The position numbers were made by a program, and so were the translations under genes. A stretch of 32,000 nucleotides of DNA. Source: Delftia acidovorans NBRC 14950 (GTDB lineage: Bacteria; Pseudomonadota; Gammaproteobacteria; Burkholderiales; Burkholderiaceae_C). The notes beneath the pieces are model-generated. The model saw nothing but the letters and a program-made list of their open reading frames with translations, did not search any database and was not told where the DNA came from. Position 1 is the first letter of the stretch. Each line of letters starts with the position of its first letter. The stretch spans positions 210,001 through 242,000 of the forward strand of contig NZ_BCZP01000009.1 in assembly GCF_001598795.1 (NCBI RefSeq), in the 5' to 3' direction. This document shows positions 2,524 through 29,225 of this stretch, piece by piece.

Positions 2524-2544
2524 GGGCCGCAATGTGTTGGTGGA

Positions 2545-3583: not shown

Positions 3584-3624
3584 TTTCAGCACCATCCCCG
3601 CCCTGCATCCTGCTCCCGGAAAAC

Positions 3625-5430: not shown

Positions 5431-5476
5431 GTCCGCCCGGCTACGGTTGAGTTCTGCCGGGTTTGGCCGAGTTCAG

Positions 5477-5884: not shown

Positions 5885-5990
5885 GGTTGTTCTCCGATGT
5901 CGATCTTCCGGCCGACATGCTCCCATGTGTCCAGGACTGGTGGCGTAGGTCCATGCCGGATTCCCGGTGACAGGCCACCGCAATCCTTGC

Positions 5991-6380: not shown

Positions 6381-6587
6381 GCAATGGTTCCTGGAGTGTG
6401 GGCCGACGACCGCAGCGGGATGTCGGAAGGAAGGTATCGGGCCATGTTAACGGCTGCCGTGGTGGCGCCGTGCGTCGCGCACCGCTGAAACCAGCGCGGA
6501 CTGCGGCCGAGTGCTGCCGAGGGCCGCGCAAAACCGTTACAGTCCCTGGCGGATTCCTTCGTCCATTTCCGCCAGAAATTCCACTGC

Positions 6588-10133
<3,546 letters not shown>

Positions 10134-10146
10134 CAAGGAGGACGCG

Positions 10147-15215: not shown

Positions 15216-15372
15216 GGAAGGCGGGAGGCTGGAACAGGCGCCGATTGTTTCGTGGATTGCACCTGCATGTGCACCGGATCATGCAAGCGGCACACGTCAG
15301 CCAAAGCCGACAGGCAGGGCACCACAAGGCAGCAGTGGATCACCAGCGACTCCCTGGTGGCCCACTGGTGGC

Positions 15373-17943
15373 TCACTCGGGCCAGGGAGAGCGGTACTCC
15401 AGCATCTGCGCCAGCGGCACGGGCCGCTCGAACAGATAGCCCTGTGCATGCTCGCAGCCCAGGGCATGCAGCAGCCTGGCCTGGGCCTGCTCCTCCACGC
15501 CTTCGGCCACGACCTTGACGCCAAAGCCCTGGGCGATGCGCAGCACGGCGGTCACGATGGACTTGTCGGATTCGGACTCCGGCAACTGGCCGACGAAGCT
15601 CTGGTCGATCTTGATGCAGTCAAAGCGCAGGCGGCTGAGATAGGCCAGGGAGGAGTAGCCGGTGCCGAAGTCGTCAATGGCGATCTTCACGCCCAGCGCG
15701 CGGATGGCGGCAATGCGCTGCAGCGTGGCGTCGCTGTCGTCCAGCAGCATGGACTCCGTCAGCTCCAGGGTCAGCAACCGGGCGGGCAGGCCGCTGGTGG
15801 CCAGTGCCTGCTCCAGCGTGGAGGCGAAGTCGGACTGGATGAGCTCGCGTGCCGACATGTTGACGTGCAGCTCGAAGTCAGCAGGCAGCCGGGGCAGGTG
15901 GGAGGCGATGTCGTGCGCCGCCGTGCGCAGCACCCATTCGCCCACGCTCAGGATCAGGTCCGACTCCTCGGCCACCGGAATGAAGACGCCGGGAGGCACC
16001 ATGCCGCGCGTCGGGCTGTTCCAGCGCACCAGGGCCTCGGCGCCGACCATGCTGCCTGTGGCCAGGTCCACCACGGGCTGGTAGAACACGCGCAGCTCGT
16101 TGCGCTCCACCGCCTGGCGCAGCTCCATGGCCAGCTGCGTGCGGCCCAGCATTTTCTGCGCCAGGCTGGGCTCGAACAGCAGGAAGGGGTGCGAGCCGCG
16201 CTGCGCCTCACCCAGCGCAATGCTGGCGTTGCGCAGCCACTCGGGCAGCGCGCCCGGCAGCAGCTCGCCGCTGACGGCGCCCGCGCAGGCGCGCAGCACG
16301 ATGTCGTCCTTGCCCACGGAAAATGGCTGGTCGAAGATTTCCAGCAGGTGGCGGCATTTGTCCTGCATCTGCTGCGGCGTGCAGTCATGCAGCCACAGCA
16401 TGGCGAACTCGTTGCTGGCCGTGCGCGCCAGCAGGGCAGGAAACTGCAGATGGTGGTTACGCAGCCGCTCGGCCACGGCCCGCAGCAACTGCTCGCCCGT
16501 GCCGTGGCCCACATCGTCGCGGACGCTGCGGAAATTCTGCAGCTCCAGCAGGCACAGCGCGGCAGGGCAGGGCGTGTTGGCGGCTGCAGCCGCATCGGCC
16601 TGCTCGATCAGGCCGGCGCGCGTGAGCAGCTGCGTCAGGCTGTCGTACTGCAGCAGGGTGCGCATGTGCTCGAACGATTCCTGCAGCCGCTGCGCCATGT
16701 TGTGGAAGGCCGAAACCAGGGACGATGTCTCGACCAGGGACGTATCCGGCAGCGCCCCTACCGCGCTCCAGTCGCCCTTGGCCAGGCGGTTGGCCGCATC
16801 GGCCGTCACCGCCAGGGGGCGCAGCGCCCGGCGCAGGCACCACACGCCCAGCCCCAGTCCCAGCAAGGCCAGGCCGAAAGCGAGGACCAGCGCATGGCGG
16901 CTGTCCGCCCGCATGCTGCTGACCAGATCGGATTCGGGCTGCAGCACCAGGATCCGCCAGTCGATGCCGCGTACATCGTGGAATGCGGTGACCTGGCCGT
17001 GGTAGATCTGCCCCTGTTCCTTGAAGCTCAGGTTGATGGTGTTCTGGGGGGCCGCTGGCGCCGATGGATCCGCGCTCAGATGCGCAGGCAGCAGGGCGGC
17101 CAGGCTGCGCAGCGCAAGATCGGGGCTTTCAGACAGCCGCAGGCGCACGGGTGGGTCATAGGGGCCTTCGCGCCGCTTCAGCACCGACAGCTCGGACGAG
17201 TGCGCCACCATGTAGCCCTGTGCGTCGACCACGGCGATATGGCCGTTGCCACGCAAGGGCTCGTCGCGCAGAAAGCGGTTCATGCTGCTCAGCCGCACAT
17301 CGGCGGCCACCACGCCGGCCAGCTGGCCGGACACCCGCACTGAAGTGGATGCGGAAATCGTGGTATCGCCCCGGTCGCCAGTCACCGTGTAGATGGGCGA
17401 CCAGTGCGGGCCGTCTTTGTGGATGGCAGGCTGGTACCAGGGGCGCACGCGGGGGTCGTAGCCTGCAAGGCTGGACATGGGCGGGCCGGGCTCCAGCCCC
17501 TCGAAGATCTGCAGGGCCCCCTGGGTGCTGCGGTCCTGAAGAATCAGGCGGTAGCGGCCATCGGGCTCCAGCCGCACCCCCGTGTATTCACCTTGTACGC
17601 CGCCAAAGCTCAACAGGCTGATCTGGTGGTGCTGGGCGTACAGCTCGGTGAATGAGCGTGTCAGATAGCCATAGATGGGGCGCAGGTCGCCGGGGGTGTA
17701 GAGCGCCTGCCGGGCCACGGTCTCGGCCAGGGCCTGCTGCACGCGCAGCGGGGTCTCCAGGTAATCGGCCAATTGGTGGCGCGTGGTGGTGGACAGGGAG
17801 TCGAGCAGCCGCAGGCTTTCGCGGTTGATGAGTTGGTCCACCTGGCGCTGCTGCCATGCCGCCAATAGCCCGGCCGTGACCACGAACACCGCTATGAAGG
17901 GGGCTGTGACTGCCGTGCGAAGTGAGAGCCTGAAGGCGGGCAT
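15373..17943 (-). CDS. c-di-GMP phosphodiesterase-type signalling protein: TM - dCache - TM - HAMP - degenerate GGDEF - EAL
   Basis: Start placed at MPAFRLSLRTAVTAPFIAVFVVTAGLLA (internal Met of track ORF 15373..18144). Cache hallmark is YDPRVRPWY. The GGDEF site reads TASNEF (16405-16422). EAL-domain motifs are intact: YQPVV, GAEALVRW, ELTES, DDFGTGYSSL, KIDQSFV, AEGVE. Confidence 0.9.
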   Translation of the reverse strand: MPAFRLSLRTAVTAPFIAVFVVTAGLLAAWQQRQVDQLINRESLRLLDSLSTTTRHQLADYLETPLRVQQALAETVARQALYTPGDLRPIYGYLTRSFTELYAQHHQISLLSFGGVQGEYTGVRLEPDGRYRLILQDRSTQGALQIFEGLEPGPPMSSLAGYDPRVRPWYQPAIHKDGPHWSPIYTVTGDRGDTTISASTSVRVSGQLAGVVAADVRLSSMNRFLRDEPLRGNGHIAVVDAQGYMVAHSSELSVLKRREGPYDPPVRLRLSESPDLALRSLAALLPAHLSADPSAPAAPQNTINLSFKEQGQIYHGQVTAFHDVRGIDWRILVLQPESDLVSSMRADSRHALVLAFGLALLGLGLGVWCLRRALRPLAVTADAANRLAKGDWSAVGALPDTSLVETSSLVSAFHNMAQRLQESFEHMRTLLQYDSLTQLLTRAGLIEQADAAAAANTPCPAALCLLELQNFRSVRDDVGHGTGEQLLRAVAERLRNHHLQFPALLARTASNEFAMLWLHDCTPQQMQDKCRHLLEIFDQPFSVGKDDIVLRACAGAVSGELLPGALPEWLRNASIALGEAQRGSHPFLLFEPSLAQKMLGRTQLAMELRQAVERNELRVFYQPVVDLATGSMVGAEALVRWNSPTRGMVPPGVFIPVAEESDLILSVGEWVLRTAAHDIASHLPRLPADFELHVNMSARELIQSDFASTLEQALATSGLPARLLTLELTESMLLDDSDATLQRIAAIRALGVKIAIDDFGTGYSSLAYLSRLRFDCIKIDQSFVGQLPESESDKSIVTAVLRIAQGFGVKVVAEGVEEQAQARLLHALGCEHAQGYLFERPVPLAQMLEYRSPWPE

Positions 17944-18187
17944 GCAGAGGTTTCCGTAGCGTGCGCCGGGCAGCCAAGGGCCGGATCTGCCTGCGACAGC
18001 GGCCATTGTGCAGTGCCTTCGCAGCCCTGCGCCGCCGCCGCAGCAGTCCGCGCCTGGGCGCTCCTGTGGTTGATAGGAAAATTTGTTGATAAATGGTTTT
18101 CGGTAGAAAAAATGAATTCTTGATGGCGATTTGCCAGAACGCAAAGGCGGGCCGTGGCCTGCGCAAAGCCAGCCATTGCGCCACTCG

Positions 18188-18244
18188 GTTTACATATCCG
18201 TTTACAAATTGATCGCCATTACATGTAGACATCACATGTAATGG
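18188..18244. promoter_or_regulatory. Repeat array upstream of the psp-like operon: two GTTTACA direct repeats plus an 11-bp perfect inverted repeat
   Basis: GTTTACA occurs at 18188-18194 and 18200-18206. CCATTACATGT (18216-18226) / ACATGTAATGG (18234-18244) are separated by 7 nt and end 16 nt before ATG 18261. The TTACA core recurs four times (three direct, one inverted). Confidence 0.4.
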
Positions 18245-18446
18245 CCGCTATGGTATCCGCATGGAACAAAAGACATCAGCCCATTACCAGCGCCTGCACC
18301 GGCAACGGCTGCGCGAACAGGGGCTGGTGAAAAAGGAGGTCTGGATTCTTCCAGAGTACGGCGCGGCATTGCAGCAATTGGAAAAGCAAATGCGCGTGCC
18401 GGGATTGCAACCGGAATCAATGGTTCTCATCCACAAGGAGGGCGGC

Positions 18447-18929
18447 ATGGACAACAGCAGACAGGCATATCGGGATATTCACGCCTTGGCGGGCGATCTG
18501 CAGCAATCGGCACTGGTGCAGGGCGGCCGGCTCCATATCGAGGTGCTGGAAGGCGCAGACGCAAGTTTGCTGGTCAGCCTGCCCGAATTCGGCGATCTGC
18601 CGGTGCATGTGGCGCTCTCGGGCGACCAATTGGTGGTGGAGGCCTTTCTGTGGCCCGCCGACCAGGTGCACGACCGCGCCGGTCTCAACGAGCAGATGCT
18701 GCGCCTGCAAAAACTGTTTCCCTTCACCACGATGGCGCTGGAACCCCAGGCCCACGGCGGCGAGGGCTACGTGATGTTCGCCGCCCTGCATGCCAGCAGC
18801 AGCGAGGGCGACATCATTGCCGAGATCCTGACCCTGGCCGACAGCGTCATCCAGGCCACCGAGGCACTGGCCCACTACCTGACGCCGGTGCCCGCCCCCA
18901 CATCCGCATCCGCCCCCGCGCAGGCCTGA
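18447..18929 (+). CDS. YjfI/DUF2170-family protein (CesT/Tir-chaperone-like fold reported for this family)
   Basis: Strong SD AAGGAGG (18435-18441) lies 5 nt before ATG 18447. FGDLPVHVALSGDQLVVEAFLWPADQV...GYVMFAALHASSSEGDIIAEILTLADSVIQATEAL runs parallel to E. coli YjfI as I recall it (YGDLQINILFTSRQMIIETFICPVS...YYIVFGALSLKSSLEDILLEITSLVDNALDLAEI). The frame stays open upstream to ATG 18261 (222 aa), so the start is ambiguous. Confidence 0.78.
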   Translation: MDNSRQAYRDIHALAGDLQQSALVQGGRLHIEVLEGADASLLVSLPEFGDLPVHVALSGDQLVVEAFLWPADQVHDRAGLNEQMLRLQKLFPFTTMALEPQAHGGEGYVMFAALHASSSEGDIIAEILTLADSVIQATEALAHYLTPVPAPTSASAPAQA

Positions 18930-18970
18930 CGCCCCGCCCGTTGAAGACACTGAGCCCCTAGGAGATCATC

Positions 18971-19681
18971 ATGACCATCTGGAACAAGCTGGTGACAGCG
19001 TTGCGCGGCGCCGCCCACGAGGCCGGCGAGGCGGTGACCGACAGCCAGGCCCTGCGCATCCTGGACCAGGAAATCCGCGATGCCGACAGCGACCTGAACA
19101 AGTCCAAGGAAGCGCTGGCCGACATCATGGCCAAGCAAAAGCTGGCGGCCGGCAAGCTCAAGCAGACCCAGGAACGCATTGCCGAGTACGAGGGCTATGC
19201 CGTCAAGGCGCTGGACACCAGCGACGAGGCGCTGGCGCTGGAAGTGGCCGGCAAGGTCTCCGTGCTGGAGACCCAGCGCGACGAGGAGCAATCCCAGCTG
19301 GACGCCTACACGCAAAGCGTGGAGCAGCTGCGCGTGGCCATACAGACGGCGCAAACGCATATCAAGCGCCTCAAGCAGCAGGCCGACACGGTCAAGGCCA
19401 CGGAAAGCGTGCAGCGCGCCCAGGCCACGGTGGCCGGCCGCTACGCAGGCTCGCAGACGCGCGTGCAAAGCGCGCTGGATTCTCTGGAGCGCATCAAGCA
19501 AAAGCAGGCCGAGCGCGGTGCGCGCATGGAAAGCGCGGCCGAGCTGGCGCGCGACAGCAGCGAAGACGCGCTGGATGCCAAGCTGCGCGCTGCCGGCATC
19601 ACGCCCCAGGCGGGCAATGCGCAATCGGTGCTGGAACGCCTGAAGGCGCAGCGCGCCGCAACTGGCGGAAAAAACGCTTGA
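18971..19681 (+). CDS. PspA/IM30-family protein (YjfJ-like; ESCRT-III superfamily)
   Basis: AGGAG SD lies 7 nt upstream. The protein is all-helical and 236 aa. ILDQEIRDADSDLNKSKEAL, TVKATESVQRAQATV, LERIKQKQAERGARMESAAEL and KLRAAGI...VLERLKAQR closely parallel E. coli YjfJ as remembered (MLEQHIRDAKAELDKAGKS, VVKATEAMQRAQQAV, LKRLQTRQAERQARLDAAAQL, KLAEAGI...VLARLQRQ). Confidence 0.92.
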   Translation: MTIWNKLVTALRGAAHEAGEAVTDSQALRILDQEIRDADSDLNKSKEALADIMAKQKLAAGKLKQTQERIAEYEGYAVKALDTSDEALALEVAGKVSVLETQRDEEQSQLDAYTQSVEQLRVAIQTAQTHIKRLKQQADTVKATESVQRAQATVAGRYAGSQTRVQSALDSLERIKQKQAERGARMESAAELARDSSEDALDAKLRAAGITPQAGNAQSVLERLKAQRAATGGKNA

Positions 19682-19755
19682 TGCGCGGCCGTTGTCCAGG
19701 CAGGCACTGCCAGGCCTGCCGCCTCGGCTGCCGGATTTGAGGGGAGGGGAGAAAC

Positions 19756-20424
19756 ATGTCTGCGTTCCTGCAATACGCGTTTGGCTTTCCGACTTTCATC
19801 TTTGGCGCCTTGCTGCTGTTCATGCTGCTGTACTGGCTGATCGCCATGCTGGGCCTGCTGGAGGTGGACTCGCTGGACCATTGGGTGCTGTTCGACGGCA
19901 GCGACCATGCGCACGGCGTGGAGCATTCGGTCAGCGCGCTGGCCGGGCTGCTGCTCAAGGTGGGCCTGGGTGGCATTCCGCTCACGGTCATCCTCACCGC
20001 GCTGTTCCTGATGTCCTGGCTGGCCTCGTATGTGCTGTGCCATTTCGTGCCCATGCCGCAGGGCTGGACCCTGGTGAACCTGCTGACCGGCTCCCTGGTG
20101 GCAGCGGCAGCCATGGTGCTGGGCTTTGCCGCCACCGTGCTGCTGCTGCGCCCGCTGCGGGGCATCGTCAACAAGGTGGCGCCTGCAGAGGAGCCCAAGG
20201 TGCTGCTGGGCCGAACCGGCCTGGTGCGCAGCGCCGTGGTGGACGGCACGCAGGGCTACGGCAGTGTCGAGGACGGCGGCGCGGGCCTGAACGTGCAGAT
20301 GCGCTCGCCCGAGCGCGCACTGGGCCGGGGCACCGAGATCGTGCTCATCGAGCACCTGCCCGAGCACAACGCCTGGCGCGTGGTCAGCAAGGCCGAGTTC
20401 GACGGCACCGAGCTGCCGCGCTAG
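19756..20424 (+). CDS. YqiJ/DUF1449-like inner-membrane protein with NfeD-like C-terminal OB segment
   Basis: GGGGAGGGGAG SD. Several TM helices are present (FPTFIFGALLLFMLLYWLIAMLGLL, IPLTVILTALFLMSWLASYVL, LLTGSLVAAAAMVLGFAATVLLL). The soluble tail is GRTGLVRSAVVDGTQGYGSVEDGGAGLNVQMRS...GTEIVLIEHLPEHNAWRVV. It sits immediately upstream of a flotillin gene, as with E. coli yqiJ-yqiK. Confidence 0.8.
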   Translation: MSAFLQYAFGFPTFIFGALLLFMLLYWLIAMLGLLEVDSLDHWVLFDGSDHAHGVEHSVSALAGLLLKVGLGGIPLTVILTALFLMSWLASYVLCHFVPMPQGWTLVNLLTGSLVAAAAMVLGFAATVLLLRPLRGIVNKVAPAEEPKVLLGRTGLVRSAVVDGTQGYGSVEDGGAGLNVQMRSPERALGRGTEIVLIEHLPEHNAWRVVSKAEFDGTELPR

Positions 20425-20441
20425 TTCCGGGATTCCCACAA

Positions 20442-20483
20442 GGCCCGAGCGCCCGTTCGGCGGGCGCGGCCTTTCCGTTTTTT
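20442..20483 (+). terminator. Terminator-like hairpin plus T-tract inside the operon (possible attenuator)
   Basis: GGCC-CGA-GCGCCCG (20442-20455), loop TTCGG, CGGGCGC-GGCC (20461-20471), then TTTCCGTTTTTT (20472-20483). It lies between the yqiJ-like stop (20424) and the flotillin start (20523). Confidence 0.5.
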
Positions 20484-20522
20484 CAGCGTTTTCACAGATA
20501 GCAATTCACAGGGGAGATTCGC

Positions 20523-22598
20523 ATGAACATGAGCAACATGGAGTGGTACATCGTCGCCGGGGTGGTGATCGGTTCCGTCTTCGTCGTCATCCTCGGGCTG
20601 TTCGCCCTGGTCAAGGCCTTCTACATCAAGGTTCCACAGGGCACGGCGCTGATCATCAACGACACCACGTCGCAGCCCAAGGTCAAGTTCACGGGCGGCC
20701 TGGTGCTGCCGGTGATCCACAAGAAGGAGTTCATGCAGATCTCGCTGCTGACGCTGGAGATCGACCGGCGCGGCAAGGAAGGCCTGATCTGCCGCGACAA
20801 CATGCGCGCCGACATCACCGTGGCCTTCTACCTGCGCGTCAATGAAACGGCGGAAGACGTGCTCAAGGTGGCCAAGGCCATCGGCGTGGACCGGGCCTCG
20901 GACAAGACGGCCGTCAACGAGCTGTTCAACGCCAAGTTCTCCGAGGCGCTCAAGACCGTGGGCAAGCAGATCGAGTTCGTCAAGCTGTTCGAGAACCGCC
21001 AGGATTTCCGCGACCAGATCATCCATGTCATCGGCAACGACCTCAACGGCTATGTGCTGGAAGACGTGGCCATCGACTACCTGGAGCAGACGCCCAAGTC
21101 CTCGCTGGACCCCAACAACATCCTGGATGCCGAGGGCATCCGCAAGATCACCGAGCTGACGGCCAACCAGAACATCGTCACCAACGAGCTCGAGCGCAAC
21201 TCCGACCTGGCCATCACCAAGAAGAACGTGGAGACCAAGGAAGCCATGCTGGCGCTGGAGCGCCAGCAGGCCGATGCCGAGGCGCGCCAAAAGCGCGAGA
21301 TCGCCACCATCCAGGCGCGCGAGCAGGCCGAAACCCAGAAGGTGCAGGAGGAAGAGCGCCTGAAGGCCGAGCAGGCGCGCATCCAGACCCAGGAGCAACT
21401 GGACATCCGTGAGGAAAACCGCCAGCGCGAAGTGGCCGTGGCCCAGCAAAACCGTGAGCGTGCCGTGGTGATCGAGGTCGAGAAGGTCACGCGCGCCAAG
21501 GAGCTGGAGATCGTGGCCCGTCAGCGCGAGGTGGAGCTGCAGCGCATCGAGAAGGAAAAGGCCATCGAGGTCGAGAAGGCCAACATCGCCAACGTGGTGC
21601 GCGAGCGCGTGGTGGTGGAAAAGTCCGTGGCCCAGGAAGAGGAACGCATCAAGGAAGTGCGCGTGGTCTCCGAGGCCGAGCGCATGAAGCAGGTCACCGT
21701 GCTGACTGCCCAGGCCCAGGCCGAGGAAGACATGGTGCGCCAGGTCAAGAAGGCCGAGGCCGAAGAGGCTTCCTCGCGCCACAAGGCCGTGGAAGTCACG
21801 ACCATGGCCCAGGCCGAGCTGGAAGCGGCCAGCAAGACCGCCGAAGCGAAGAAGAAGCTGGCCGAGGCCATCGAGGTCGAGCGCGCCGCGCCCGGCCTGG
21901 CCGATGCCAAGGTGCGCGAAGTCACCGCCGCCGCCCTGGAAAAGGAAGGCCTGGCCCAGGCCCGCGTGATTGCCGAGAAGCTGATGGCCGAAGCCAAGGG
22001 CCATCAGGAAAAGGGCCTGGCCGAGGCGCGCGTCATCGAGGCCACGGCCGACGCCAACGAAAAGCAGGGCCTGGCCGATGCCAAGGTGCTGGAAGAGCGC
22101 CTGCTGGCCCAGGCGCGCGGCGAAGCCCAGGTGGGCGCCACCAAGGCCACGGTCACGCGCGACGTGGGCATGTCCGAGGCCGATGTGCTGCGCGACAAGC
22201 TCTTCGCCGAGGCCAAGGGCCTGACCGAGAAGTTCACCGCGCTGGCCTCGCTGTCCGACCAGGCGCGCTCGCATGAGGAGTTCCGCATGCAGCTGGAGAA
22301 GAACTTCGAGCAGGCGCTGGCCGCCATCGAAGCCAACAAGAGCGTGGCCAAGGACCAGTCCGAGGTGCTGTCGGCCGCACTCAGCAAGGCCAACATCGAC
22401 ATCGTGGGTGGCGAGGGAGCCTTCTTCGACAACTTCGCCAAGGCGCTGTCCGTGGGCAAGGCCGTGGAAGGCGTGGCGGGCAAGAGCCCCATCGTGCAGG
22501 ACCTGATCAGCAAGTTCCTCAGCGGCAAGGGCGGCGCATCGCTGCTGAACGCGCTGGGCGACGGCAAGGGCCTGCCGCCCACGCAGAGGGTCGACTGA
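20523..22598 (+). CDS. Flotillin-family SPFH/Band-7 protein (YqiK-like), 691 aa
   Basis: GGGGAG SD. N-terminal TM is WYIVAGVVIGSVFVVILGLFALV. The SPFH core includes YIKVPQGTALIINDTTS...LVLPVIHKKEFMQISLLTLEI...DNMRADITVAFYLRV. A long Glu/Ala/Lys/Arg/Gln-rich coiled-coil (EA-repeat) region follows, with four GLA(D/Q/E)A(K/R)V repeats. Confidence 0.93.
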   Translation: MNMSNMEWYIVAGVVIGSVFVVILGLFALVKAFYIKVPQGTALIINDTTSQPKVKFTGGLVLPVIHKKEFMQISLLTLEIDRRGKEGLICRDNMRADITVAFYLRVNETAEDVLKVAKAIGVDRASDKTAVNELFNAKFSEALKTVGKQIEFVKLFENRQDFRDQIIHVIGNDLNGYVLEDVAIDYLEQTPKSSLDPNNILDAEGIRKITELTANQNIVTNELERNSDLAITKKNVETKEAMLALERQQADAEARQKREIATIQAREQAETQKVQEEERLKAEQARIQTQEQLDIREENRQREVAVAQQNRERAVVIEVEKVTRAKELEIVARQREVELQRIEKEKAIEVEKANIANVVRERVVVEKSVAQEEERIKEVRVVSEAERMKQVTVLTAQAQAEEDMVRQVKKAEAEEASSRHKAVEVTTMAQAELEAASKTAEAKKKLAEAIEVERAAPGLADAKVREVTAAALEKEGLAQARVIAEKLMAEAKGHQEKGLAEARVIEATADANEKQGLADAKVLEERLLAQARGEAQVGATKATVTRDVGMSEADVLRDKLFAEAKGLTEKFTALASLSDQARSHEEFRMQLEKNFEQALAAIEANKSVAKDQSEVLSAALSKANIDIVGGEGAFFDNFAKALSVGKAVEGVAGKSPIVQDLISKFLSGKGGASLLNALGDGKGLPPTQRVD

Positions 22599-22701
22599 AC
22601 GGGGCGGCCGCCCGGCCGCTCCCTCCACCGGCTGCCCAGCCTCCCGCATCCGCCTTCCTCCGCCCGCCTGCCTGCCAGTCAGCTGGCCGGGGAGGGCGTG
22701 A

Positions 22702-25700
22702 ATGGTCCCTGACACGCGAAAGCCCGTGACGCCCATGTCCCAACCGTCCCCATCGTCTTCACAGTCCCTGTCCCCCGACACCGCGGCCTCCGCCGTGGAC
22801 CAGGCAGTCGCCAGCGGCGGCTCCTACGAAGTGCTGGCCAAGCGCCTTGACGGCCAGGGGCAGGCGCTGGAGACGCTGGCACGCCAGCTCAACGAGGAGC
22901 GGCTGGAGGAATTCGGCCGCAGCCAGATGGAAGTCATCGGGCGCATGCGCGTGCGCACCGAAAACAACTGCCTGGGCCGCGACATCGCCCAGGTCGGCGG
23001 CTACCTGCTGTTTGGCTACAACGTCTTCATGGGTCTGAAGCAGTCCACGCGCGTGGAGGACGTGTTCGTGCTGTACCGCCTGCACGAGGGACAGCAGGGC
23101 TACGAGGTCACGCCGGTCGATCTCAAGGACAGCTTTCTGGGCATACAGAGCTTCGTGCAGGACTTCCAGGAGCTGTACGCCTACTACAAGAACACCCGGC
23201 TGATGCAGCTGGCCGTGCGCGACGGCAAGCTGCTGGCGAGCTTTCAGATTGGCGAGCGCCTGTCCGATGTGCGCGTATTCCGCTGGTCCGTGCCCGTCGA
23301 TGGCCAGCCCATCCGCTACATAGACAACCGGGGCGAGCGCGATATCGAGCTGCCCGCACCGCATGACTTCGAGTGGCAGCGCGCCGGGCGCGAGCAGCTG
23401 GTGCAGGGGCGCCACCCGCACATCAACGTGCTGGACGGGGTCTTCGTCGAGACCCTGGGCGGCACGCTGACCATCAAGGTCGAGAACAACACCAACGACG
23501 GACTGGGCATCTACAGCGAGCCCGTGCAGGAGAAGAACCAGTCGCTGGACGACGCCGTGTTCGAGTACGCGGCCGTGGGCAGCCTGATCCTGCTGAAGAT
23601 CCTGCCCTACCGCGAAGAGCAGTGGCGCTACCTGATCTTCAACACCCTGTCGCGCCAGGTGCTGCGCATGGACGCCATCGGCGCGGCCTGCATCCAGCTG
23701 CCGCAGGACCACGGCATCATCTTCCCCGGCGGCTACTACCTGCAAAGCGGCGAGAACCGCTCGTTCGAGCAGAACATGCAGGGCATGCGCTACCGGCGCA
23801 GCATCCGCTCGCCCAACGGCGAGGATGTGCTCTACGTGTTCTACGAGCCCGAGAGCGGGCGCATGGCGCTGTTCAAGTACAACCTGATCGAGCGCGCCCT
23901 GCAGCCGCCCATCATCGGCCACGGCTATGCGCGCATGGACGACGGGCGCGTCGTCATCTTCGCGGCCGAGAGCAACGAGGCCTCGCGCGTGCACCCCATG
24001 CAGGTCTGGCGCACGCCCTTCGCCTCGGACGACTATGCGGCACGCCAGCCGCAGCGCGACAGCTTCCTGGGCCGCATCGGCAATGCCGAACTGGTCAGCG
24101 GCATCTCCGACCTGTACAGCGTGCGCAAGGAAATCGCGGCCACCGAGGTCTCGCTGCCGCGCTACGAGCGCCTGATCGACGCCGCGCGCCGCCTGTTCGA
24201 GCGCTACCACTGGCTGGGCGCGCCGCAGCTCAAGGGCGTGCACGAGACCCTGCTGGGCATTGTCGCCACGGGTGATGCGGTCATCGACGAGTACGAAAAG
24301 GTCGAGAGCATCCGCAACGCCTCGGCCAAGGCCATGGGCGAGGTTTCCAGCCGCCACGGCCAGTTGCTCAAGACACTGCGGCTGGCCGACTGGAAAAGCA
24401 TTGGCGAGTACGTGGACGCGCTCACCCAGCTGGGCCAGTTGCGCGGCCAGCTCATGGCCACGCGCGACCTGCGCTATGTGGACCAGGCCGCCATCGACAC
24501 CATGGTGCAGGGCGTCAACGAGGCCCAGGCCGAAGTCTCCCAGCGCACGGCCGCCTTCATTGCCACCGACGAGGCCATGCAGCCCTATGCCGATCAGCTG
24601 CAGGCACTGGACCAGGCCGCGCAGGCGGCAGCCACGGTGGCGCAGATCAACGAGCCGCTGGCGCGCATGGCCGACATGGCGGCTGCGCTGGACATGCTGT
24701 CCGAGCTCATGGGCAGCCTGTCCATCGACGACGCCACGCAGCGCACCCAGGTGGTGGATCGCATCTCGGCCGTCTACGCGCGCCTGAACCAGGTGCGTGC
24801 ACGCGCCGAGCAGCGCCGGTCTGGCCTGGGCGGCGCCGAGAACGTGGCCCAGTTCGCCGCCCAGCTGGCGCTGTTCTCGCAAAGCATCGTCAGCGCCCTG
24901 GGCCTGGCGCAGACGCCCGAGAAATGCGACGAGCAGCTGGCGCGCCTGCTGGTGCAGCTGGAGGAAATCGAAAGCCGCTTCGGCGAGCACGAGCAGTTCC
25001 TCGGCGACATCATGGCCAAGCGCGAGGAGGTGCTGGAGAGCTTCGAGGCGCGCCGCCAGTCGCTGCAGGACGAGCGCCAGCGCAAGGCGCAGGGCGTGCT
25101 GGACGCGGCGCTGCGCATCGTGCAGAGCCTGCCCAAGCGCACCGAGAAACTGGCCAGTGCCGACGCGCTGCATGCGTTCTTTGCAGGCGATCCGCTGATC
25201 GGCAAGCTCAAGGAGCTGGCCCAGCGCCTGCGCGAGCAACTGCATGACCCGGTCAAGGCCGACGACATCGACGGCCGCGTCAAGAACCTGCGCGACCAGG
25301 CGTTTCGCGCGCTGCAGGACCGCACCGAGCTGTACGAAGGCGACGGCGCCATCATTCGCCTGGGCCGCCACCGCTTCAGCGTGGGCAACCAGGAGCTGGA
25401 CCTGACCCTGCTGCCGCGCAACGGCGAACTGTTCCTGCATCTGGTCGGCACCGAGTATTTCGAGCCCATGGACAACCCGGAGCTGGCCGCCCTGCAGGCC
25501 TACTGGGATGCCTCCACGCCGGCCGAATCGCCGCAGTTCTACCGGGGCGAATACCTGGCGCTGGAAGTGGTGCTGGCTGCGCGCCAGCGCCGTGACGGCT
25601 GGAGCGAGGCCCGGCTGGCCCAGTTGCTGCCCGACGAGGCGGCGCTGACCCAGGCCATCCGCGAATTCTCCGCGCCGCGCTACCGCGAAGGCTATGAGCG

Positions 25701-28323
25701 CGGCATCCACGACCATGATGCGGCCCGCATCCTGCAGGTGCTGCTGCCCCTGCGCGATGCTGCTGGCGTGCTGCGCTTTGCGCCCGACGCCCGTGCGCTG
25801 GCCCTGCTGTTCTGGAGCGCACAGGCCCAGGTGCAGCAGCCGCAGCTGGCTGCCGCCATGGCGCAGTGGCCGCTGCGCGCCCAGCAGGCCCAGGCCATGC
25901 AGCAGATGTTCGGCAGCGAGGCCGAACAGCTGAGCCTGCGCACCGACATCTCCGAGCGCCTGCGCGCCTATGCCGAAGAACGGGGCCTGCTGCGCGACCT
26001 GCTGCCAGGACAGGCGGCGCCCGCAGACAGCGATATCGACAGCCTGATCCACGGCGCCGCCGACTACCTGCAGGCCGAGCTGGCGCAAAAGGCCGTGCGC
26101 TTTTCCTTCTCCAGCTACAGCCAGTCGGCCATTGCCGCGCTGCAGGCTGCCGTGCAGCAGCAGGCCCAGCCGCTGCAGCGCTGGGAAGAAATGCAGGCCT
26201 ACTGGCAGGGCGAGGACCGGCGCGACAAGGCCGTGGCGCCGCTGGACCAGCGCTGGCGCAGCGCGCTGCACTGGCTGCAGACCGCCTGCCGCGCGCTGGA
26301 CGACGGGCAAGGGCAGGCCTGGCTGGCCTATTGCGGCGAGGCCGCCGCCTGGCTGTGCTGTGCCGGCCAGTTGCCGTGCAAGGTCAGCAGCGTGGACCTG
26401 CGCCACGAAGTGCCGGGCCTGCTGGGCCAGCATCCGCGCATTGCGGACGGCCGCATGTGGCTGCAGATCGACGACCTGGGCCAGCGCGCCGCGCGCCATT
26501 TCCGTACCTTTGTTCCCGAATTCGGCCGCTACCAGGCGCTGCGCCAGCAGCTGCTGCAGGAGTGGCGCTCGCGCGTGCGGGTGGAGGAATTCAAGGCCCG
26601 GCCGCTGTCGTCCTTTGTGCGCAACCGGCTCATCAACGAGATCTACCTGCCCGTGATCGGCGACAACCTGGCCAAGCAGATCGGCGTGGCCGGCGAGAAC
26701 AAGCGCACCGACCAGATGGGCCTGCTGATGATGATCTCGCCGCCCGGCTACGGCAAGACCACGCTGATGGAGTACGTGGCCAACCGGCTGGGCTTGATCT
26801 TCATGAAGATCAACGGCCCGGCGCTGGGCCACTCCGTGCGCTCGCTGGACCCGGCCCAGGCGCCGGACGCCACGGCGGCCAAGGAGCTGGAAAAGCTTAA
26901 CCTGGCGCTGGAGATGGCCAACAACGTGATGCTGTACATCGACGACATACAGCACACGCACCCCGAGTTCCTGCAGAAATTCATCTCGCTGTCGGACGGC
27001 ACGCGCCGCATCGAGGGCGTGTGGAAGGGCCAGACCCGCACCCACGACATGCGCGGCAAGCGCTTTTGCGTGGTCATGTCGGGCAATCCGTACACCGAGT
27101 CGGGGGAGGTCTTCAAGATCCCCGACATGCTGGCCAACCGTGCCGACATCTACAACCTGGGCGATGTGCTGGGCGGCATGCAGGAGGTGTTCAAGCTCAG
27201 CTACATCGAAAACAGCATGACCTCGAACGCCGTGCTGGCGCCGATGGCCACGCGCAGCCTGCAGGACCTGTACCTGCTGCTGGACAAGGCGCAGGGCCGT
27301 GAGGTCTCGGGCAATGCGCTGTCGCACGACTACTCATCGGCCGAGCTGCGCGAGATCGAGGCCGTGCTGGCCCGCATGGTGCAGGTGCGCGAGCTGGTGT
27401 TCAAGGTCAACCAGCAGTACATCCAGAGCGCCGCGCAGGACGACGGCTACCGCACCGAGCCGGCCTTCCGGCTGCAGGGCAGCTACCGCAACATGAACAA
27501 GCTGGCCGAGAAGATCACGCCCGTGATGAACGACCAGGAAATGCAGCAGATGCTGGCCGACCACTACCAGGGCGAAGCGCAGATGCTGACCACGGGCGCC
27601 GAGGAGAACCTGCTCAAGCTCGCCGAGCTGCGCGGGCAGATGAGCGACGAGGACAGCGCCCGCTGGCAGCAGATACGCCAGCAGTTCCTGCGCCGCCAGG
27701 CTGCAGGCGGCGCCAATGCCGACGCCGCCACGCGCGTGACGGCGCAGCTGGTCGACCTGGTCGCCGCTACGCGCGAGGTGGCCCAGTCGGTGTCCCAGTC
27801 CCAGCAGCAGGCGATGCAGGAAGGCGCCGCCGACCAGGCCCACGCATCGGCAGCGGCCGCGCACGCCGCCGCCAGGGACGCTGACCAATCCCAGACGCTA
27901 CAGGCGCTTCAGACTCTGCTGGCGCGGCTGCTGCAAACCCAAAGTGCTGCAGGCGACTCGCTGCACGGCATACGCGAGCTGATGGCGCAAAGGGCGGCCA
28001 GCGAGCCCGTCGGCACCCAGGCCAGCACCCTTTCGGAGGTACAGGCCGCCCAGGAACGTCAGGCCCTGGTCCACATGCTGGGCCAACTGCTGACCCGGTC
28101 GCTGACCCAGTCCCTGGAGCCCGTGGTCACGCACCTGGACCAGGCCCGCCGCCAGCAGCTGGGCCTGCACCGCGTGCTGATGCAGGTGGCCACGCGCATG
28201 CAGGAGCAGATCGACGCCCAGCGCGCGGGCCGTCCCGTGCCGGCTGCGGGCGCCATACGCTCCGAGGAAATCGACAAGGCCTTCGAGCGCATGCAGCGCG
28301 GCGACGTGCCGCCTGCGGCCTAG
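22702..28323 (+). CDS. Giant (1873 aa) uncharacterised protein with a single MoxR/dynein-type AAA+ ATPase module
   Basis: GGAGGG SD (22691-22696) lies 5 nt before the ATG. Walker A is SPPGYGKTT (26737-26763) and Walker B is MLYIDD (26929-26946). A sensor/arginine region follows: VVMSGNPYTESGEVFKIPDMLANRADIY. The remainder is a beta-rich-looking N-terminal about 400 aa plus roughly 1100 aa of helical Ala/Gln/Leu/Arg-rich sequence. No TM or signal peptide is evident. Confidence 0.9.
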   Translation: MVPDTRKPVTPMSQPSPSSSQSLSPDTAASAVDQAVASGGSYEVLAKRLDGQGQALETLARQLNEERLEEFGRSQMEVIGRMRVRTENNCLGRDIAQVGGYLLFGYNVFMGLKQSTRVEDVFVLYRLHEGQQGYEVTPVDLKDSFLGIQSFVQDFQELYAYYKNTRLMQLAVRDGKLLASFQIGERLSDVRVFRWSVPVDGQPIRYIDNRGERDIELPAPHDFEWQRAGREQLVQGRHPHINVLDGVFVETLGGTLTIKVENNTNDGLGIYSEPVQEKNQSLDDAVFEYAAVGSLILLKILPYREEQWRYLIFNTLSRQVLRMDAIGAACIQLPQDHGIIFPGGYYLQSGENRSFEQNMQGMRYRRSIRSPNGEDVLYVFYEPESGRMALFKYNLIERALQPPIIGHGYARMDDGRVVIFAAESNEASRVHPMQVWRTPFASDDYAARQPQRDSFLGRIGNAELVSGISDLYSVRKEIAATEVSLPRYERLIDAARRLFERYHWLGAPQLKGVHETLLGIVATGDAVIDEYEKVESIRNASAKAMGEVSSRHGQLLKTLRLADWKSIGEYVDALTQLGQLRGQLMATRDLRYVDQAAIDTMVQGVNEAQAEVSQRTAAFIATDEAMQPYADQLQALDQAAQAAATVAQINEPLARMADMAAALDMLSELMGSLSIDDATQRTQVVDRISAVYARLNQVRARAEQRRSGLGGAENVAQFAAQLALFSQSIVSALGLAQTPEKCDEQLARLLVQLEEIESRFGEHEQFLGDIMAKREEVLESFEARRQSLQDERQRKAQGVLDAALRIVQSLPKRTEKLASADALHAFFAGDPLIGKLKELAQRLREQLHDPVKADDIDGRVKNLRDQAFRALQDRTELYEGDGAIIRLGRHRFSVGNQELDLTLLPRNGELFLHLVGTEYFEPMDNPELAALQAYWDASTPAESPQFYRGEYLALEVVLAARQRRDGWSEARLAQLLPDEAALTQAIREFSAPRYREGYERGIHDHDAARILQVLLPLRDAAGVLRFAPDARALALLFWSAQAQVQQPQLAAAMAQWPLRAQQAQAMQQMFGSEAEQLSLRTDISERLRAYAEERGLLRDLLPGQAAPADSDIDSLIHGAADYLQAELAQKAVRFSFSSYSQSAIAALQAAVQQQAQPLQRWEEMQAYWQGEDRRDKAVAPLDQRWRSALHWLQTACRALDDGQGQAWLAYCGEAAAWLCCAGQLPCKVSSVDLRHEVPGLLGQHPRIADGRMWLQIDDLGQRAARHFRTFVPEFGRYQALRQQLLQEWRSRVRVEEFKARPLSSFVRNRLINEIYLPVIGDNLAKQIGVAGENKRTDQMGLLMMISPPGYGKTTLMEYVANRLGLIFMKINGPALGHSVRSLDPAQAPDATAAKELEKLNLALEMANNVMLYIDDIQHTHPEFLQKFISLSDGTRRIEGVWKGQTRTHDMRGKRFCVVMSGNPYTESGEVFKIPDMLANRADIYNLGDVLGGMQEVFKLSYIENSMTSNAVLAPMATRSLQDLYLLLDKAQGREVSGNALSHDYSSAELREIEAVLARMVQVRELVFKVNQQYIQSAAQDDGYRTEPAFRLQGSYRNMNKLAEKITPVMNDQEMQQMLADHYQGEAQMLTTGAEENLLKLAELRGQMSDEDSARWQQIRQQFLRRQAAGGANADAATRVTAQLVDLVAATREVAQSVSQSQQQAMQEGAADQAHASAAAAHAAARDADQSQTLQALQTLLARLLQTQSAAGDSLHGIRELMAQRAASEPVGTQASTLSEVQAAQERQALVHMLGQLLTRSLTQSLEPVVTHLDQARRQQLGLHRVLMQVATRMQEQIDAQRAGRPVPAAGAIRSEEIDKAFERMQRGDVPPAA

Positions 28324-28580: not shown

Positions 28581-29225
28581 ATGGAACACAACACCCAGCT
28601 TTCCGTTTCGCGCAGGGACCTGCTGATTGCAGGTGCCTCCACGGCTGCGGCAACGGCCGTGCCTCGATCGGCCGGCGCGCAAGTGCAGCCTCCCTCCATC
28701 CCCGAAGGGGTCCAACTGCCCGTCACCCTGCAGGTCAACGGCAAGGAACACCGCCTGGACCTGGACACCCGCACCACGCTGCTCGACGCCCTGCGCGAGC
28801 ATCTGCACCTGACCGGCACCAAGAAAGGCTGCGACCATGGCCAGTGCGGGGCCTGCACGGTGCTGGTCAATGGCCGGCGCGTGGTGTCCTGCCTGAGCCT
28901 GGCCGTGATGAACCAGGGCGCCGCCGTGACCACCATCGAAGGTCTTGGCACACCGCAATCCCCGCACGCCATGCAGGCCGCCTTCGTGCGGCACGACGGT
29001 TTCCAGTGCGGCTACTGCACGCCGGGGCAGATCTGTTCTGCCGTGGGCGTGCTCGATGAAATCAAACGCGGCATGCCCAGCCATGCCAGCGAAGACATCG
29101 TGGCCCAGCCCCTGGTGTCGGCCCATGAACTGCGTGAACGCATGAGCGGCAACCTGTGCCGCTGCGGGGCGTATTCCAACATCGTCGATGCCATCACCGA
29201 AGTGGCGGGGGAGGGGCGCACATGA
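28581..29225 (+). CDS. paoA: Periplasmic aldehyde oxidoreductase, 2Fe-2S subunit with Tat signal (PaoA/YagT-like)
   Basis: Twin-arginine motif [18 protein letters not shown]. Two 2Fe-2S cluster motifs: [12 protein letters not shown] and CGYCTPG...CRCGAY. Internal Met of track ORF 28389..29225. Confidence 0.92.

Follow-up and report, generated by a model that had tools for sequence, protein, structure and literature searches.

Five genes on one strand of a 32,000-nt stretch of Delftia acidovorans DNA (here called the window) lie close together, the last of them encoding a giant ATPase. This locus raises the question of whether the five proteins form a single membrane system and, if so, which of its neighbors the ATPase serves. 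The original prediction treated the set as one functional unit, with the ESCRT-III polymer and its Vps4 ATPase as the organizing analogy.

Correspondence of the Delftia Locus to the Pseudomonas aeruginosa bac Operon

The ORF coordinates and the coding-type GC3 of all five ORFs (0.78 to 0.92) agree with the predicted plus-strand array, in which successive genes are separated by gaps of 41, 74, 98, and 103 nt (Table 1). The predicted families were likewise recovered, by Pfam for gene 1 (DUF2170, E = 1.5e-45), gene 2 (PspA_IM30, E = 9e-49), and gene 5 (DUF3686, DUF7902, and AAA), and by profiles of orthologs compared with Escherichia coli YqiJ and YqiK for genes 3 and 4. The resulting series on one strand, DUF2170–PspA–short NfeD/YqiJ-like–flotillin–DUF3686 ATPase, matches bacA through bacE of P. 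aeruginosa bacABCDEF (PA3732-PA3727; PA14_16140-16200) in order and orientation. Identities between the two species are 46% for BacA, 55% for BacB, 36% for BacC, 77% for BacD (PaFlo3), and 60% for BacE, and reciprocal best matches to the P. aeruginosa Bac proteins are found among the five. Judged by these comparisons, the Delftia genes are the orthologs of bacABCDE, minus the phospholipase-D gene bacF; tblastn with BacF, a PLD/HKD hydrolase, found no such gene in the window. The flanking genes differ from those of P. aeruginosa bac; they are signaling and metabolic genes with none of defense type; the gene next after bacE encodes a 2Fe-2S subunit and begins at ATG 28581, beyond a spacer of the predicted 257 nt. 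No outstanding terminator-like site was found in the locus (6 found versus 7.3 expected), and the genes share a promoter region.

Table 1. Features of the Delftia bac locus (positions within the window)
Feature	Position	Strand	Description
Divergent intergenic regulatory region	17944-18260	.	317 nt, 56% GC; minus-strand GGDEF-EAL gene on one side, bacA on the other
Putative operator	18215-18245	+	Perfect 12-nt inverted repeat GCCATTACATGT-N7-ACATGTAATGGC with two ACATGT boxes (18219-18228, 18232-18241)
Sigma-70-like promoter	18226-18254	+	TAGACA-17 nt-TATGGT; -10 hexamer ends 6 nt 5' of ATG 18261
bacA-like gene	18261-18929	+	222 aa; basic 47-residue N-terminal extension and DUF2170/CesT-like chaperone domain (aa 71-207)
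Internal AAGGAGG (18435-18441) and ATG 18447 (Met63)	18435-18449	+	5 nt between motif and ATG
bacB-like gene	18971-19681	+	236 aa; PspA/IM30 family, YjfJ type
bacC-like gene	19756-20424	+	222 aa; YqiJ/short-NfeD-like membrane protein; N-terminal TM helices, C-terminal beta-rich domain
bacD-like gene	20523-22598	+	691 aa; YqiK-type flotillin: TM helix, SPFH domain, long coiled coil, conserved C-terminal region
bacE-like gene (giant ATPase)	22702-28323	+	1873 aa; DUF3686, DUF7902, helical middle, single AAA+ core
Shine-Dalgarno motifs of bacB, bacC, bacD, bacE			AGGAG, GGGGAGGGGAG, GGGGAG, GGAGGG

The five-gene arrangement recurs in other genomes, more than chance would give. The cluster is real but already known: the original prediction was correct about both the bac cluster and the survey of PspA neighborhoods (PMC2587700, PMC11237479), and the novelty that it implied did not survive, the five-gene (sometimes six-gene) operon having been published in 2024. 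Specifically, a comparative-genomic study (PMC11237479; mSystems 2024) had already delineated this gene set as the class [quoted passage not shown] all five components of which are present in Delftia with no essential difference, DUF2170 being the proteobacterial chaperone type. Regulatory sites, a distinction between long and short BacA, and linkage frequencies are absent from that study. What appears to be new here is the lack of a Shine-Dalgarno site at gene 1, an N-terminal extension that lies outside the crystal structure, and the ACATGT boxes with their promoter geometry.

The prediction of a single functional unit is supported by work on P. aeruginosa. RT-PCR joins bacA through bacF as one transcript in strain PA14, and BacB to BacF are increased 6- to 13-fold in a bacA mutant (PMC10948618). 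Moreover, two phages were tested, and PA3728-PA3732 belong to a set of 17 genes that both of them induce (PMC12041424). [quoted passage not shown] On the opposing side, deletion of the PA14 flotillin gene lowers biofilm by only ∼20% (PMC13086221). Cotranscription, derepression, and phage induction are experimental results from P. aeruginosa, not Delftia, and the remainder of our account is sequence comparison or inference.

Protein Families of BacA to BacD

BacB is a member of the PspA/IM30 family, and hence of the ESCRT-III superfamily, scoring 166.4 bits against PspA_IM30 (Pfam gathering cutoff of 33.9 bits) and matching solved Vipp1/PspA chains with E values of 5e-5 to 2.5e-4. The window's own BacC and BacD proteins had no Pfam match. 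A profile of BacC orthologs aligned with E. coli YqiJ over 131 columns (hhalign 91%, E = 1e-6), and BacC matched YuaF (2K14) at the expected position with an E value of 0.2, which gives moderate support, from sequence, for a YqiJ/short NfeD type. For BacD, the ortholog profile aligned with the E. coli flotillin YqiK over 412 columns (hhalign 99.9%, E = 8e-32), and 2 of 18 orthologs matched Band_7 (E = 9e-7); BacD is an SPFH/flotillin protein of the YqiK type.

BacA aligned end to end with the NCBIfam BacA model (positions 1-203 of 206) at 238.6 bits, below the equivalog cutoff of 300 bits, and is by that cutoff a homolog and not an equivalog. Its AlphaFold2 model fits the crystal structure of P. 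aeruginosa BacA (8Q8O) with a TM-score normalized to the target of 0.90 to 0.93. Residues 70 to 210 of the model (pLDDT ∼90) also match the folds of AmyR/YbjN, SicP, ExsC, and CesT, and the modeled BacA has the CesT/Tir-like (T3SS-type) chaperone fold.

The crystallized PA14 BacA (146 aa) matches a short form of the protein, and a conserved 47-residue N-terminal extension is absent from the structure. Of these first 47 residues, 19 are invariant in 29 to 30 homologs, and codons 6 to 32 of bacA differ from those of P. aeruginosa by 13 synonymous and 2 nonsynonymous changes. AlphaFold2 models the extension with low confidence (block-mean pLDDT of 48 to 72). Its match to the Pfam MazE-like family, seen in 14 of 20 segments (best E = 0.0013), falls under the curated cutoff.

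A Putative Operator Overlaps the Predicted bacA Promoter

The gene set had been predicted to start at 18216, with a Shine-Dalgarno site for every gene. Position 18216 instead falls within a perfect inverted repeat, and the first ATG is at 18261. The ribosome-binding sites stood for genes 2 to 5; ATG 18261 has none, and the AAGGAGG credited to gene 1 lies inside its ORF. Met63, which follows this internal motif, is invariant in the homologs compared, and ATG 18447 is possibly the start of a short BacA isoform consisting of the chaperone domain only.

Upstream of bacA, the predicted 317-nt AT-rich region was recovered, its length assuming that the divergent GGDEF-EAL gene starts at ATG 17943; its GC content is 56%, compared to ∼67% window-wide. 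The inverted repeat carries the only two matches to YYACATGTRR in the 32 kb (0.22 expected). Long bacA genes of the SA[HY]YQR type were examined in other genera, and all 23 have two ACATGT boxes on their 5' side; variant boxes occur in some Xanthomonadales. P. aeruginosa bac shares the long BacA N terminus, the boxes, and the promoter-to-ATG geometry, with the boxes spaced 22 bp apart compared to 13 bp in Delftia. The boxes sit inside a predicted σ70-type promoter whose geometry is kept in 20 of the 23 long-bacA loci (-10 hexamer ending 6 to 7 nt 5' of the ATG, spacer of 17 ± 1 nt). Because the Delftia -10 hexamer ends just 6 nt before ATG 18261, the predicted start implies a leaderless transcript, and the conserved positions of boxes and -10 element together suggest a leaderless, self-repressing BacA.

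A σ54 promoter was proposed by the authors who studied P. aeruginosa bac; no TGGC-N8-TGC σ54 site was found within the Delftia intergenic region. The locus likewise does not conform to a classical Psp regulon (PspF, σ54, PspBC), the scanned flanks encoding signaling and oxidoreductase proteins (small ORFs being scanned incompletely). In each of the 12 short-BacA loci, a tandem ribbon-helix-helix (RHH)-like gene is present separately and the palindrome is a different one, GACAT-N-ATGTC; the RHH-like protein and the BacA extension showed no homology (hhalign 0.1%).

BacE Linkage Tracks the Flotillin

BacE comprises DUF3686 (aa 56-503), DUF7902 (aa 624-707), an AAA+ core at about aa 1338-1490, and a variable C-terminal tail. 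The core contains a Walker A motif (GYGKT, 1349-1353), a Walker B DD (1414-1415), N1462, and R1480. The Walker B motif is DD, not DE, in every family member examined, and the ATPase may therefore be slow or regulatory. By eye, the BacE stretch NP-x-E-x-G...P-D-x-L-x-N-R resembles MoxR. Profile searches with the whole protein and its segments detected no MIT or Vps4_C match and no nuclease, helicase, or DNA-binding domain; neither a protease domain nor an evident TM segment was detected. The best profile match of the core was RuvB (94% over 73 columns), whereas its match to the classical-clade FtsH (75%) covered just 35 columns around the P-loop; hhalign with E. coli RavA (MoxR-type) gave 5.8%, and no VWA gene was found among recurrent bacE neighbors. 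The top fold match of the low-confidence BacE model (pLDDT 63) was NorQ (E = 1e-3, query-normalized TM-score of 0.16), and Vps4, katanin, and spastin were absent from its top 50. These results do not identify BacE as a Vps4-type AAA ATPase.

We surveyed bacE gene neighborhoods in 80 genomes, the 80 loci being the best of at least 585 tblastn matches, a sample consequently biased toward Proteobacteria. Of these loci, 71 with flanks of 5.5 kb or more were taken as informative. Within this best-80 sample, bacC and bacD lie 5' of bacE in 71/71 informative loci, bacC preceding bacD each time; the median bacD–bacE gap is 102 nt, and the stop and start codons of this pair overlap in Actinomycetota and one deltaproteobacterial MAG. 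The bacA–bacB pair is near bacE in 38 to 39 of the same 71 loci (∼55%); in ∼45% bacE has no PspA gene within 10 kb, and none lacks the flotillin. Linkage to PspA, with other partners, is seen again in Flavobacterium (Bacteroidota) and a Planctomycetota genome, and a PLD-family gene (bacF) follows bacE in ∼15 of these best 80 loci. The original prediction had named a lack of enriched synteny as grounds for rejection, and the survey did not reject it: the giant ATPase adjoins flotillin and YqiJ-like genes invariably, and PspA in about half of the informative loci. The Vps4/ESCRT-III analogy of that prediction is not supported as the organizing idea: the ATPase follows the flotillin and not PspA, lacks MIT, and matches RuvB better than FtsH. 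These findings make it more likely that the ATPase works primarily with the flotillin, PspA being a recurrent add-on; lineages without an adjacent PspA gene could be served by one elsewhere in the genome.

Discussion

Comparison with other systems places the Delftia locus among partial counterparts. E. coli yjfIJ and yqiJK encode the same DUF2170, PspA, YqiJ, and YqiK flotillin families, but, as predicted, they are separate loci, 1.2 Mb apart and neither with an ATPase gene; YjfI is a short form of 133 aa, compared to 222 aa in Delftia, and yjfIJ sits in a polyamine-linked operon. HflK/C–FtsH sets a precedent for an inner-membrane SPFH scaffold that is paired with an AAA+ machine, although FtsH is a membrane-anchored classical-clade protease, to which BacE is similar only in the P-loop. 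In Bacillus subtilis pspA-ydjGHI (samGHI), PspA is coencoded with an SPFH protein, as in Delftia, and PspA requires this protein, YdjI, to reach the membrane (PMC8581546). The B. subtilis locus, however, lacks an AAA+ ATPase, a CesT-like chaperone, and a YqiJ-like protein, and its SPFH protein is soluble.

The ESCRT-III/Vps4 systems of archaea and eukaryotes resemble the locus in that a gene for a PspA/ESCRT-III-superfamily polymer lies beside one for an AAA+ ATPase, and BacE could serve as a dedicated unfoldase of the Vps4 kind that takes BacB polymers apart, with the flotillin and YqiJ-like protein merely a platform. PspA genes adjoin the three bacC–bacD–bacE genes in Proteobacteria, Bacteroidota, and Planctomycetota; P. 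aeruginosa induces and represses all five proteins together, and ATP-dependent membrane remodeling like that of Snf7/VPS4 has been proposed for PspA operons with an AAA+ ATPase (PMC11237479). BacE, however, is four to five times larger than Vps4, has a propeller-type N-terminal region, has one AAA+ core only, lacks MIT or any other ESCRT-III-binding domain, and cannot be shown to belong to the classical clade. Given also the many loci without a nearby PspA gene, we regard this role as unlikely. Less probable still is a membrane-acting antiphage or abortive-infection system, with a phospholipase-D effector in some lineages. The phage induction in P. aeruginosa and the PLD-family genes 3' of some bacE genes would fit defense, but induction by phage is equally a trait of a phage-shock-type stress response, the Delftia locus has no PLD gene, and the operon is widespread in sampled Proteobacteria. 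In addition, PADLOC models gave only weak, coiled-coil noise for the five proteins (PspA to LmuB and JetC).

Databases label the BacE family "DNA repair ATPase," a name that, with the RuvB match of the core and the separate E. coli loci, would suit two or three unrelated neighboring modules (yjfIJ-like, yqiJK-like, and an ATPase acting on DNA). The linkage of bacE with flotillin and YqiJ-like genes, invariant across phyla in the best 80 of at least 585 matches and extending to stop/start overlaps, the cotranscription and coregulation in P. aeruginosa, and the lack of detected DNA-related domains make this reading very improbable. No paper was found that backs the name, and DUF3686 had no matches in a full-text search.

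The account we favor, and consider reasonably probable, is that Delftia bac is a two-module envelope-stress/membrane-maintenance system with a leaderless, BacA-repressed operon. In the core triad, whose members always occur together, the flotillin BacD would assemble with YqiJ-like BacC into an SPFH scaffold at the cytoplasmic side of the inner membrane, and BacE, the giant AAA+ member, would spend ATP on assembling, remodeling, or recycling that scaffold or its clients. The accessory pair, present in about half of sampled lineages, comprises the ESCRT-III-like PspA homolog BacB and the CesT-like chaperone BacA, and the scaffold may bring BacB to damaged membrane, by analogy with YdjI and PspA. 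A σ70-type promoter is predicted to produce a leaderless mRNA from the bacA ATG, and full-length BacA, through its conserved basic N-terminal extension, would bind the two promoter-overlapping ACATGT boxes and so repress the operon that encodes it. Membrane condition would feed into this repression through the binding of BacB to the BacA chaperone domain.

Identity of the five-gene array

The five ORFs of the cluster, bacA- to bacE-like genes 1-5 (Table), are separated by intergenic gaps of 41, 74, 98, and 103 nt, and all five show a coding-type GC3 of 0.78-0.92. Profile searches identified gene 1 as a DUF2170 protein, which also aligned end to end with the NCBIfam model "biofilm formation regulator BacA" at 238.6 bits against a cut-off of 300 bits, and gene 2 as PspA_IM30 (E 9e-49). 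The gene 2 product also matched Vipp1/PspA proteins of known structure by sequence. For the proteins of genes 3 and 4 in the window, Pfam gave no match, and single-sequence or profile searches of the PDB returned nothing. These blanks were resolved by profile comparison with Escherichia coli proteins: the profile of gene 3 orthologues matched YqiJ (91%, E 1e-6), and that of gene 4 orthologues matched the flotillin YqiK (99.9%, E 8e-32, 412 columns). Gene 5 encodes a giant ATPase containing DUF3686 (amino acids 56-503, E 8e-205), DUF7902 (624-707), and one AAA+ core. In keeping with an origin from Delftia, the flotillin of the window has identical entries under that name, and the ATPase shares 99% identity with a Delftia protein cluster. 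Among defence-system models, none was matched by the cluster proteins.

The Pseudomonas aeruginosa orthologue of the ATPase, 60% identical to that of the window, is located in an array of the order DUF2170–PspA–213 aa–688 aa–1746 aa–PLD, and the first five proteins of this array share 46, 55, 36, 77, and 60% identity with those of the window, in the same order. This P. aeruginosa array is the bac cluster; its PLD gene (bacF) was not found in the window. The original prediction had noted this resemblance correctly for the first four genes. The initial description of bac covered four genes and linked them to biofilm and virulence phenotypes (PMC2587700). A later study joined all of bacABCDEF by RT-PCR over each junction, and also reported a 6.1-13.5x increase of BacB-F in a bacA mutant and the crystal structure of BacA (PMC10948618). 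Two phages induce PA3728-PA3732 on infection (PMC12041424), and the same proteins were jointly raised in another stress proteome (PMC13637947). A BacA–BacB complex was predicted by AlphaFold2 (PMC13092808), and deletion of the bac flotillin, PaFlo3, cuts biofilm by ~20% (PMC13086221). Comparative genomics had further delineated an operon class of CesT/Tir-PspA, TM-band-7-flotillin, a YqiJ/YuaF protein, sometimes PLD, and a novel AAA+ ATPase with coiled coil and beta-propeller (PMC11237479), to which the gene set of the window corresponds exactly. The genes form a genuine, functionally coherent cluster, albeit one already published; the part that appears new is its regulatory anatomy. The literature search turned up no study devoted to the ATPase, and a search for DUF3686 gave no papers.

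As originally predicted, Shine-Dalgarno motifs precede genes 2-5. For gene 1, two details required correction: position 18216 is not the gene start, and the AAGGAGG placed upstream of it lies within the ORF (18435-18441), 5 nt before an internal ATG at 18447. The ATG at 18261 has no Shine-Dalgarno site.

The cluster is bordered on both sides by other genes. The divergent c-di-GMP gene upstream was a tempting neighbour given the biofilm phenotype, yet its adjacency to the operon is not conserved in other loci, and it was rejected as a part of the system. The downstream oxidoreductase operon, which comprises the FAD-binding subunit of a molybdopterin dehydrogenase and a 2Fe-2S subunit that seems to bear a twin-arginine signal, is unrelated to the cluster. 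As to a terminator or RNA element 3′ of gene 5, folding of the region does not surpass that of shuffled sequence (z-score 0.61), and Rfam gave 0 matches. The upstream part of the window also holds a signalling cluster (1585-12779).

Table. Coordinates of features in the window and in loci of other genomes carrying bacE relatives (L numbers, each locus in its own coordinates)
Feature	Position	Strand	Remark
MCP	3625-5430		signalling cluster
CHASE3-GAF hybrid histidine kinase, three receiver domains	6588-10133		signalling cluster
CheR	10057-10986		signalling cluster
Receiver-histidine kinase	11601-12779		signalling cluster
dCache-HAMP-GGDEF-EAL c-di-GMP gene	15373-17943	-	divergent; upstream border
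Perfect inverted repeat GCCATTACATGT-N7-ACATGTAATGGC	18215-18245		putative operator
Sigma-70-like promoter TAGACA-17-TATGGT	18226-18254		predicted
Gene 1	18261-18929	+	ORF
Gene 2	18971-19681	+	ORF
Gene 3	19756-20424	+	ORF
Gene 4	20523-22598	+	ORF
Gene 5	22702-28323	+	ORF
2Fe-2S/FAD oxidoreductase operon	28581-30172		downstream border, after 257 nt
RHH-like gene	L037 6734-7084		
RHH-like gene	L045 6250-6582		
RHH-like gene	L049 4325-4645		
RHH-like gene	L052 6240-6590		
RHH-like gene	L056 5611-5934	-	plus 7 further loci
TelA-like gene	L014, L016, L019-L024, L028, L029, L033, L038, L041, L079 ~15300-17300		
TelA-like gene	L084 13001-15009		

Conservation of the flotillin/YqiJ-like/ATPase triad

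The ATPase family ranges from Proteobacteria to Actinomycetota, and no fewer than 6,300 clusters of 90% identity match the ATPase. An alignment of the ATPase with distant representatives was used to fetch 80 species-genome loci, the best of at least 585 matches, and the ORFs of these loci were searched with iterated profiles. Because the iterated PLD profile also picked up shadow ORFs within bacE, PLD matches were counted only downstream of that gene. Seventy-one loci, in which the sequence 5′ of the ATPase gene spans 5.5 kb or more, were informative; relatives of the query are over-represented in the sample. The gene-neighbourhood analysis that the original prediction had put forward as a means of its own refutation instead upheld the association with flotillin, as YqiJ-like and flotillin genes lie upstream of the ATPase gene on the same strand in 71/71 loci, with a median flotillin-ATPase gap of 102 nt. 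An overlap of 4-8 nt between the flotillin and ATPase genes, suggestive of translational coupling, is seen in three loci, two from actinomycetes and one from a deltaproteobacterial MAG (L060 9980-9983, L076 9950-9953, and L078 9866-9873).

Linkage of the ATPase to PspA, which had also been anticipated, held only in part. The DUF2170-PspA pair is present in 38-39 of the 71 loci, all from Proteobacteria and divergently oriented in four, and is absent in the remainder; within 10 kb it was not found in Stenotrophomonas, Xanthomonas, Xenorhabdus, Providencia, Myxococcota, Actinomycetota, one Acidobacteriota, and one Clostridia genome. In lineages farther away, PspA is again linked, alongside different partners: the order is CesT_Tir_1–PspA–C–D–extra 586-aa protein–E in Flavobacterium and PspA–PspA–YqiJ_N–D–E in a Planctomycetota genome, while one low-GC contig has C–D–E–TelA. 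Thus, recurrence in the surveyed loci supports the five-gene unit well, and within it the flotillin/YqiJ-like/ATPase triad is the constant core and PspA a recurrent add-on.

Several loci depart from this layout. In Flavobacterium litorale (L085), a CesT_Tir_1 chaperone (2101-2496) stands in place of DUF2170, and the 586-aa protein between the flotillin and ATPase genes (6228-7988) is a coiled-coil protein with a faint SMC_N match. Between 2 and 3.4 kb of other sequence separates these two genes in Lampropedia (L005 6630-10022) and a zetaproteobacterium (L036 7935-9968). In Xanthomonadales, as well as in a distant contig of low GC, the ATPase gene is followed directly by a TelA-like gene, with a gene of ~235-257 aa beside it in at least nine of these loci; the PspA pair is sometimes not nearby, and TelA may partner the core triad instead. 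One further locus (L087 8001-11123) encodes a 1040-aa relative with DUF3686 and DUF7902 but without the AAA+ part, and flotillin, YqiJ-like, and PspA genes were not found nearby.

Motifs and affinities of the BacE ATPase

Alignment of 16 diverse relatives revealed an invariant Walker A (GYGKT, residues 1349-1353) and invariant N1462 and R1480. The Walker B motif ends in DD (residues 1414-1415; window 26941-26946), that is, hhhhDD rather than hhhhDE, in 16/16 of these relatives, which hints at slow or regulated ATP hydrolysis. Searches of solved structures found no BacE relative beyond P-loop similarity. By hhalign, the AAA+ core matched E. coli RuvB (94%, E 1e-7, 73 columns) and, over the P-loop only, FtsH (75%, 35 columns). 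A MoxR-type core, our first impression, was not borne out by comparison with E. coli RavA (5.8%), and no support was found for the database name "DNA repair ATPase". The AlphaFold2 model of residues 1180-1720, for which 29 close homologues were used, was of poor quality (pLDDT 63); its fold matches were weak (E 1e-3 or worse) and mixed, including NorQ, RuvB, and Skd3/ClpB, and did not single out a clade. Vps4 was not among the matches of this low-pLDDT model.

The original prediction had likened the ATPase to Vps4, the remodeller of ESCRT-III polymers, with PspA as the polymer. This analogy loses ground to the view of a flotillin-centred ATPase, as no MIT or other extra domain was found in BacE, either in the whole protein or in segments, and the triad linkage is constant. 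The sharper hypothesis from the survey is that the constant partner of BacE is flotillin, not PspA.

Predicted operator and promoter of bacA

The motif YYACATGTRR occurs in the 32 kb only within the perfect inverted repeat 5′ of bacA, and in other loci it is found almost only upstream of bacA. Two ACATGT boxes are present in 23/23 loci with a long BacA, that is, one with an N-terminal extension, of the SA[HY]YQR type; some Xanthomonadales with a variant BacA N terminus have variant boxes. In 20/23 loci the best sigma-70-like promoter combines a 17 ± 1 nt spacer, which holds the proximal box, with a -10 hexamer ending 6-7 nt short of the bacA ATG. From this spacing a leaderless bacA mRNA is predicted; it would account for the missing Shine-Dalgarno site of gene 1. 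The conserved boxes and promoter recur across genera (window 18215-18261, L001 5673-5721, and upstream of bacA in L002-L072). A sigma-54 promoter was proposed by the P. aeruginosa authors; however, its consensus was not found in the intergenic region 5′ of bacA, and the window and the other loci show a predicted sigma-70-like promoter instead.

Twelve loci encode a short BacA of 134-166 aa. All 12 contain a tandem ribbon-helix-helix (RHH)-like gene of ~110 aa, found in 0 long-BacA loci, which follows the PspA gene in 11/12 and lies downstream of the ATPase gene in L043. GACAT-N-ATGTC palindromes, and no ACATGT boxes, were present 5′ of bacA in 4/4 short-BacA loci checked. From these sequence patterns, the short-BacA loci in all likelihood match another regulator with another operator in control of the operon. 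Homology of the RHH-like protein to the BacA extension was rejected (hhalign 0.1%).

The N-terminal extension of BacA

The extension is a candidate for the part of BacA that binds DNA. The chief argument for this role is the correspondence of one regulator type to one operator type, and it fits the de-repression in the bacA mutant. Conservation in the gene 1 protein is highest over the first 47 residues, 19 of which are invariant in 29-30 homologues, and codons 6-32 differ from those of P. aeruginosa by 13 synonymous and 2 non-synonymous changes. The extension (residues 1-62; window 18261-18446) is basic and absent from the crystallized P. aeruginosa protein (8Q8O, 146 aa), which aligns to residues 74-207 only; therefore, the extension has not been described before. 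It matched Pfam MazE-like weakly but consistently (14/20 segments, best E 0.0013, below the cut-off), no solved relatives were found, and its AlphaFold2 model was of low confidence. Directly after it, Met63 is invariant in 30 aligned homologues and is preceded by the internal AAGGAGG (window 18435-18449); a Shine-Dalgarno-like sequence precedes the equivalent Met in ~20/27 long-BacA loci. A second BacA isoform, consisting of the chaperone domain only and made from this internal site, is plausible.

Working model and implications

Identity, linkage, domain families, and conserved sites rest on this analysis, and co-transcription, negative control by BacA, and phage induction on P. aeruginosa experiments (PMC10948618, PMC12041424). 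In our working model, BacD and BacC would together make up an SPFH platform at the inner membrane. With ATP, BacE would build, remodel, or recycle this platform or else its clients, and BacA would hold BacB and repress the promoter. BacB would be brought to damaged membrane by the BacD/BacC platform; delivery of PspA by YdjI in Bacillus subtilis is a precedent (PMC8581546). A bolder joint reading, which we consider unlikely, is that BacE represents the first case of an ATP-driven remodeller devoted to a flotillin (SPFH) scaffold in bacteria, with BacA a leaderless repressor/PspA-chaperone hybrid that also has a chaperone-only isoform. BacE would then be to SPFH assemblies what Vps4 is to ESCRT-III, and this one platform would also receive PspA. 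By way of the ACATGT boxes, full-length BacA would signal PspA occupancy straight to the promoter; translation from the internal Shine-Dalgarno site at Met63 would yield the shorter isoform.

The bac operon, which is widespread, is the best natural candidate for showing by what means PspA/ESCRT-III-like polymers and flotillin scaffolds of bacteria are disassembled and recycled, and whether ATP is spent on this. The survey provides handles on it in the putative two-ACATGT-box operator, the predicted leaderless start, the overlooked BacA N-terminal domain, and the invariant DD Walker B. In P. aeruginosa, bac is phage-responsive and affects biofilm, rhamnolipid production, and virulence, and thus the regulatory model would be directly relevant to a pathogen.
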